From: a virus
Taxonomy: Duplodnaviria; Heunggongvirae; Uroviricota; Caudoviricetes
Strand: one strand, 5' to 3'
Virus record (IMG/VR): IMGVR_UViG_2529292852_000001
Coordinates: 96,714-160,713 of that record
Length of the DNA: 64,000 nucleotides
The notes under the pieces are model-generated. The model saw nothing but the letters and a program-made list of their open reading frames with translations, was not told the origin of the DNA and searched no databases. The position numbers and the translations under genes were made by a program. Within the stretch, counting starts at the first letter, position 1; each line of letters starts with the position of its first letter. This document shows positions 29,794-30,199 of this stretch, one piece after another.

Positions 29794-30033
29794 TTATACT
29801 TCTGCAAGTTGTTTTTCGACTTCATCAATGCGCTTATTCAACACTTCTCTGTAAGCCACTAAGTCTTCGTAATACTTGTACGGATTCCAGTATAGTGTAG
29901 TTTCATCAGACTTACTTCCTGCTTTAGGACTAATAAAGTTTCTAGCGCCTCGTTTCAATGAATTGTAACGTGTGCGATCTGGGTTTTTCTTTTCATATTT
30001 TCTACTTGCCTTTTTTTGTGATTCTAATACCAT
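29794..30033 (-). CDS. Small Aca-like DNA-binding protein, candidate repressor of the cassette promoters
   Basis: SQKKASRKYEKKN.DRTRY..KR.ARNFI..EDL resembles, from memory, the AcrIIA32 C-terminal/Aca-type family; driven by its own cassette promoter 30121. Confidence 0.55.
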   Translation of the reverse strand: MVLESQKKASRKYEKKNPDRTRYNSLKRGARNFISPKAGSKSDETTLYWNPYKYYEDLVAYREVLNKRIDEVEKQLAEV

Positions 30034-30199
30034 AATTATTCCTTCTTTCTTATATCGTTACTCTATAATTGATTTAAATTAATAAGGGCTTTTATTTAAC
30101 CCTTTCCTTATTACACTTATATTATATAACGTTACTCTATATAATGCAAGCTTTTTTTGAACTTTTTTTCATCTTTTTTGATCTTATCAGTGCAATTTC

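Follow-up and report, generated by a model that had tools for sequence, protein, structure and literature searches.

A basic 79-aa protein encoded by a Lactobacillaceae megaplasmid probably represses 19 near-identical cassette promoters of small genes, mostly anti-defense-like, including the one upstream of its own gene; we put the probability of this reading at roughly 0.7. Three kinds of evidence point the same way: homology of the protein to Aca13 (the C-terminal domain of AcrIIA32), the placement of a conserved operator within the promoters, and the co-occurrence of the protein family with its putative operators.

The megaplasmid and its cassettes

The window (the whole 64,000-nt stretch analyzed, to which positions refer unless given as record positions) corresponds to bases 96714-160713 of an IMG/VR virus record of 180,095 bp. 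The nearest public DNA consists of Ligilactobacillus salivarius megaplasmids (~90% identity), the window includes a Rep3 initiator with iterons, and Pfam families for terminase and HK97 capsid had no match in the record, which was therefore treated as a megaplasmid; the phage-plasmid reading, to which the IMG/VR filing had given rise, was dropped for want of terminase and HK97-capsid matches. A reading of the region as a conjugative leading region was also dropped: neither a relaxase (Pfam Relaxase) nor a VirD4-type coupling protein (T4SS-DNA_transf) was matched in the record, and the search for conjugation genes turned up only an M23 peptidase and an FtsK-like protein of 950 aa. Plasmid relatives are typed as non-mobilizable in PLSDB.

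Table 1. Features of the repressor cassette (window positions) and operators beside homologues at other loci
Feature or locus	Position	Strand	Sequence	Basis or remark
Cassette promoter	30121..30149	-	TTGCAT-N17-TATAAT	-35 at 30149-30144, -10 at 30126-30121
Operator O1, in promoter spacer, abutting -10	30127..30139	-	TAGAGTAACGTTA	The same in all 19 record cassette promoters, save A/C at one position
5' UTR hairpin, terminator-like, between O1 and O2	30084..30104	-	AAGGG..CCCTT, weak T tail	Recurs in most cassettes
Leader operator copy O2, degenerate	30053..30065	-	TAGAGTAACGATA (right-half T-to-A, CGATA)	Sequence read
Ribosome-binding site (RBS)	30039..30045	-	GAAGGAA, weaker than AAAGGAG of most other cassettes	Also in orthologous cassettes
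Gene of long-form Aca13-like protein, candidate repressor	29794..30033	-		ORF, family search, AF2 model, homology to AcrIIA32 C-terminal domain
Proposed regulon: span of 17 window cassette promoters with same O1	4299..33257	-		Strict promoter pattern
Lactobacillus phage phiPYB5			TTGCAT-TATATAACGGGGCGTTA-TATAAT; TATAACG-GGG-CGTTATA twice, second copy before homologue	Homologue between lysin and integrase
L. reuteri plasmid pAN417A (L004)	12260-12800		Six tandem TTGACA-N17-TATAAT promoters, spacer TATAAC-CACACA-GTTATA	
L027			TATAAC-ATACCC-GTTATA	Three copies
L033			TATAACG-TATT/AATA-CGTTATA	Both sides of gene
Short-form prophage loci			TATAACGTATACGTTATA	Upstream of two-gene operon with homologue last

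The -35 of the cassette promoter shares only the TTG of TTGACA, so that a generic promoter scan does not return it. A strict pattern applied to the whole record gave two further cassette promoters, at record positions 12708 and 14127, for a total of 19; they occur on both sides of the 79-aa gene. The 19 promoter copies of the operator (O1) read TAG[A/C]GTAACGTTA, followed by TATAAT. The sequence TAACGTTA has 32 copies in the window, where 1.9 are expected (a count reached in 0 of 100 shuffles), and 36 of its 42 copies in the 180-kb record have the same orientation. There are in addition 13 genuine leader copies (O2) with an intact TAGAGTAACGTTA, 3-10 nt upstream of the Shine-Dalgarno (SD) sequence. 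Their flanks vary among cassettes while the 13 nt are invariant, and the conserved unit is therefore an asymmetric 13-mer. The motif named in the original prediction is real, but the unit that is conserved is TAG(A/C)GTAACGTTA, not the 8-bp palindrome alone.

A 13-mer of this kind might be conserved merely through recent duplication of one module, with the 79-aa protein as an unrelated piece of cargo. Part of the conservation does reflect shared ancestry, since between cassettes the promoter-leader module is 60-90% alike over its full 140 nt. However, the O2 flanks have diverged around an unchanged 13 nt, unrelated phages and plasmids also have a spacer palindrome next to their family members (below), and the 79-aa protein, itself basic, has a DNA-binding repressor as a homologue, which together make this explanation very unlikely.

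The O2 of the repressor cassette, degenerate in its right half, reads TATCGTTA on the plus strand, exactly as originally given. All orthologous cassettes examined have the CGATA change (those of NZ_CP123973 and of three metagenome contigs, with leaders otherwise diverged), and it is kept at loci L001, L006, L009, and L022-L024; its presence in leaders that have otherwise drifted marks it as a stable trait and not a sequencing quirk. The distance between O1 and O2 is not constant among cassettes (69-77 bp), which speaks against phase-dependent looping.

Two other roles for O2 were considered and rejected. As a second promoter, it has no consistent hexamers, and its transcripts would be without an SD sequence; a function as an RNA hairpin, like the target of Aca2, is unlikely, since an 8-nt palindrome leaves no loop. 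Five cassettes (promoters 4593, 5873, 6584, 7625, and 15570) have no O2, and three of these (6584, 7625, and 15570) have no hairpin either. An orphan TAGAGTAACGTTA is located at record position 14333, right after a terminator-like hairpin and downstream of a TTGCTA-N17-TATAAT promoter at 14427.

The leader hairpin, with its A/T tract, may add a layer of attenuation. Its terminator-like form and its position between O1 and O2 in most leaders could also be taken to mean that the 79-aa protein binds the operator yet acts as an activator or as an antitermination partner, for example together with this hairpin; for plasmid pLS20, establishment genes are reported to be under antitermination control (PMC6294495). 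This seems extremely unlikely here: the promoter should be strong unaided, given its perfect -10, its spacer of 17 bp, and the A/T-rich tract upstream, a protein bound in the spacer against the -10 would occupy the classic position of a repressor, and the homologue Aca13 represses.

The cassette cargo includes an ArdC-like protein (11832..12797) and a weak ArdA-like match (7995..8339). The remainder is mostly acidic and unannotated, and no cargo match to a named Acr was found in Pfam, PHROGs, or NCBIfam.

Several neighboring elements can be recognized. An IscB element (28464-29713, minus strand) begins 80 nt past the stop codon of the 79-aa gene, and consists of a HEARO/omega RNA (29495-29713; 119 bits to Rfam RF02033) and an RRXRR+HNH ORF of 324 aa (28464..29438), shorter than the 434-aa IscB of pLMP1046. 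On this side of the gene NZ_CP123973 has a transposase, and it thus looks as if the original terminator of the cassette has been replaced. Beyond the IscB element (26938-28498, minus strand) is a 450-aa TnpB-like ORF, preceded by a 74-aa remnant that weakly matches the end of a serine-resolvase domain; the arrangement looks IS607-like. Three more TnpB-like ORFs are found at 13490..14887, 40716..41927, and 45290..46444. Other minus-strand genes encode a Pnkp-like RNA repair enzyme of 807 aa in which kinase, phosphatase, and RNA ligase are fused (49154-51577), and a helicase with, after it, two paralogous N6/N4 DNA methylases whose genes have stretches of 76-90% identical DNA in common (17971-23743).

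The 79-aa protein and Aca13

The ORF has an ATG start and encodes a protein with 18 K+R against 12 D+E (pI 9.58), the most basic among the 18 first ORFs downstream of cassette promoters. Its AF2 model is all-helical, with helices at residues 4-16, 18-34, 41-49, and 51-78 (mean pLDDT 95.9). The starting point of the original prediction, a basic helical ORF with a cassette promoter and a degenerate second operator, is thus sound. An exhaustive phmmer search of 1.84e9 representative proteins gave only 29 relatives, nearly all of 70-80 aa; the consensus of this long-form family is E.Q..A...Y...NP..T.Y..L.R.A..F..PK.GTK.......Y..DL..L. Neither Pfam (E up to 0.1) nor NCBIfam matched any family, or an HTH, in the protein. 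Its sole PHROGs match is phrog_2277 (function unknown), and ESM Atlas listed only unnamed Bacillota clusters. Foldseek of the model against the PDB gave no match, and VIA-align against 48,161 chains gave generic helical matches only (Z <=5.1).

A profile of the long-form family matched just one solved chain in the PDB, 8ye6_B, over residues 89-124 and 126-141 (E = 1.9e-4). This chain ("A32") is AcrIIA32, from a Streptococcus uberis prophage (PDB 8YE6 chain B; PMC8934645, PMC12282945), and its C-terminal domain is Aca13. BLASTP of the 79-aa protein against this domain gave 33% identity over 36 aa (E = 9e-5), and an hhalign comparison of the long forms with an alignment of short forms (described below) and the AcrIIA32 domain gave a probability of 98.3% over 61 columns (E = 1.4e-14). 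The single gap in the latter alignment is a 15-residue insertion in the long forms, which in the AF2 model forms helix 3. Judged by these comparisons, the originally proposed resemblance to the C-terminal region of AcrIIA32 is true homology. A likeness to small Aca-type regulators was also proposed, with Aca11-13 named for comparison. This holds for Aca13, through the profile-profile match, but not for Aca11, which is described with HTH/AP2 motifs (PMC12282945).

Aca13 binds an inverted repeat between the -35 and -10 and represses two acr promoters, as found by EMSA and reporter assays; binding is not by an HTH but by a "coiled alpha-helix," and residues K92, W99, R107, and S111 are essential for repression by AcrIIA32 (PMC12282945). 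The isolated C-terminal domain repressed one of two tested promoters, but not the other (PMC12282945). In the 79-aa protein the equivalents of these four residues are Q6, Y13, T21, and S25: S25 alone is identical, Y13 replaces W99 aromatic for aromatic, and the other two differ. Q6 is found in 22 of 25 family sequences, an aromatic residue at position 13 in 25 of 25, and T21 in 16 of 25, and the three columns are among the better-conserved ones of the long-form family. Stand-alone short forms likewise have Q/Y/T at the K92/W99/R107 positions. The replaced contact residues would be compatible with an altered DNA specificity.

Homologue loci were collected by scans of metagenome and viral contigs with a five-sequence sub-alignment as query, giving long forms like that in the window plus many stand-alone short forms of 58-60 aa (L021 and L028-L048, prophage ends in metagenomes). 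The short forms share the N-terminal motif QK.ASRKYE..N.E.TR...R.AR.F with the 79-aa protein, but are without the insertion, and are predicted to have two helices (AF2, mean pLDDT 85.0). Their gene is the downstream member of a two-gene operon whose first gene encodes an unknown protein of 237 aa, and the operon is located between a lysin gene and the host ftsY. As in the window, there is a palindrome in the promoter spacer, there TATAACG..CGTTATA; each of these loci has a single operator, with half-sites 4-6 nt apart. One locus (L018, 4720-5231) has genes for a 70-aa short-form-like and an 81-aa long-form protein in tandem, then an operator-bearing promoter; both forms can therefore coexist in one element.

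By its sequence, its predicted type of fold, and the placement of its operator, the 79-aa protein can be classed as a stand-alone long-form member of the Aca13 family. Both proteins are small and basic, and all-helical with no HTH (as predicted for the 79-aa protein). In both systems an inverted-repeat operator lies in the -35/-10 spacer and touches the -10, one regulator controls several promoters up- and downstream of its own gene (as proposed for the window), and the cargo of the mobile element includes counter-defense genes (ArdC-like in the window). There are also clear differences. Aca13 is fused to an Acr, while the 79-aa protein stands alone; the latter has the 15-residue insertion (the extra helix, about residues 39-53), and its first helix is kinked at an N-P, neither feature being present in Aca13; and its contact residues are Q/Y/T where AcrIIA32 has K92/W99/R107. 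The operator is TAGAGTAACGTTA in the window, against a TAACGTACATGTAC stretch in S. uberis. The proposed regulon has 19 promoters against two for Aca13, and leaders carry a second operator copy; the setting is a Lactobacillaceae megaplasmid instead of a streptococcal prophage, and, unlike that at the Aca13 locus, the cargo includes no known Acr.

Operators beside homologues and candidate regulators

The S. uberis acr promoters were read from phage 700P1. The acr locus of this phage has two identical promoters, TTGACT-TTTTAACGTACATGTAC-TATAAT, in which a palindromic sequence abuts the -10. With one lenient pattern (TAAC-N(0-7)-GTTA in a promoter-like spacer), a site was found <=1.2 kb from the homologue at 24 of 31 homologue loci, and the density of spacer-palindrome sites was 6.06 per 10 kb near homologues vs. 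0.59 per 10 kb farther off at the same loci. At least eight distinct operator versions are present among these loci; examples are given in Table 1. The phiPYB5 promoter is identical to that of the window at 19 of 25 positions around the operator, and differs only in the central six bases. Exact 19-mer promoter scans of genome and viral contigs gave single chance matches only.

Within this collection the window operator is an outlier: its TAAC/GTTA halves have zero gap, vs. 5-7 nt at every other locus, and with an invariant 5' TAGAG that has no symmetric partner it is an asymmetric site of 13 nt.

Two of the other loci have features of their own. In phiPYB5 (L005, 4440-5520), a three-gene module between lysin and integrase has two operator-bearing promoters, with one operator a perfect 25-bp palindrome; its first gene matches Pfam Phage_Gp111 and its last weakly matches DMP19 (DNA mimic), and it looks like an uncharacterized anti-defense locus. 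In pAN417A the tandem promoters follow one another every ~100 bp, with no ORFs, and are flanked by the Aca13-like gene and by an ArdA operon of 20 genes; either an array of small RNAs or an operator sink is conceivable.

Among plasmids, the promoter-leader module was found in 1 of the 72,556 in PLSDB, NZ_CP123973, where it occurs in 18 places. This is also the only L. salivarius plasmid in PLSDB to encode the 79-aa protein, so the co-occurrence there is that of a single record. Relatives of the pLMP1046 type with the same 335-aa cargo gene have no promoter-leader module, no TAACGTTA, and no 79-aa protein. In two of these (an L. salivarius S35 plasmid, L056, and pLMP1046, L057) the cargo gene, at ~91% DNA identity, belongs to a long operon that has a different promoter and begins with the gene of an Xre regulator of 65 aa; by sequence, the cargo is the same and the regulatory systems have been exchanged.

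The 13-mer might instead be the operator of another regulator, with the 79-aa protein controlling only itself or something else. Among ~45 scanned window ORFs there are no classical transcription factors besides the N-terminal HTH domains of TnpB and the Rep protein, and RHH_1 had no match in the whole record. Two candidates lie elsewhere in the record, and a host factor could be a third. The main one is an 88-aa paralogue (record 15548..15814) with 42% identity to the 79-aa protein, which could share or take its role. However, its gene belongs to a RusA-phosphatase-HicAB operon without a cassette promoter, and of the four predicted contact residues two are changed (Q6 to R, S25 to L). The other is the single HTH_3 (Xre-type) match of the whole record (42575..43306), but its gene is >50 kb away, beside the FtsK-like gene. 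While the geometry of the window operator, unlike that beside other family members, would also fit a different regulator, it is the 79-aa gene that is itself behind the operator, and in phiPYB5 a single family member accompanies two operators of the same build. Control by another protein therefore seems improbable, and the 79-aa protein remains the preferred repressor.

Proposed mechanism and implications

In the proposed mechanism, the 79-aa protein would dimerize through its long C-terminal helix (residues 51-78), and its basic N-terminal helical hairpin (residues 4-34) would bind the 13-bp operator. This fills the 3' part of the 17-bp spacer against the -10 in 19 near-identical promoters, so that its occupancy should block RNA polymerase. 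In 13 cassettes O2, 69-77 bp downstream and just upstream of the SD sequence, probably acts as a roadblock or adds affinity. With an intact O1, a mutated O2, and a weaker RBS, the repressor's own cassette is predicted to have leakier autorepression and a low steady rate of synthesis. In a plasmid that has just arrived, and finds no repressor, all cassettes (the ArdC-like protein and many small acidic proteins) would fire, and would be shut down as the 79-aa protein accumulates. Such "zygotic induction," as the original prediction had it, would be a logical consequence for any entry route.

A comparable regulatory logic is found in ArdK and KorA of IncW, IncN, and IncP plasmids, where one small repressor has operators in several early or establishment promoters, such as those of ardC and ssb (PMC9723621). 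These are tri-helical HTH dimers; the ArdK operator is a direct repeat at the -35, and operator spacing varies widely (PMC9723621). The likeness to the proposed window system is functional only: the 79-aa protein is modeled as a long helix and a helical hairpin, has no Pfam HTH, and is without the tri-helical HTH and dimerization domain of ArdK/KorA. HTH-type Aca proteins (Aca1, Aca2, and others) repress their own synthesis and damp strong acr promoters once an initial burst has passed; they have a different fold, and usually control one operon. To our knowledge, Aca13 has so far been described in a single paper, for streptococcal prophages and two promoters, and a regulon of 19 promoters would be the largest of the Aca type.

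A more extended proposal is that one non-HTH, Aca13-type protein governs a 19-promoter regulon of a Lactobacillaceae megaplasmid; that its re-spaced asymmetric operator (TAGAG + TAACGTTA) is perhaps read via the 15-residue insertion; that the leader O2 and the crippled O2 of the repressor's own cassette set the feedback; and that the operator tags ~25 unannotated small proteins as candidates for counter-defense. As a whole this is tentative, with slightly less than an even chance of being right.

These comparisons extend Aca13 to a family in lactobacilli, on both plasmids and phages and in long and short forms, and suggest that a half-site code, TAAC/GTTA, recurs at variable spacing. If the proposed role is true, the operator would be a cheap marker for new anti-defense genes in mobile elements of Lactobacillaceae, much as the Aca13 operator led to AcrIIA35. 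The pair of an intact and a crippled O2 would be a natural experiment on how a repressor maintains its own expression while silencing its regulon, and the protein and its promoter would make a compact repressor/promoter pair for lactic acid bacteria.
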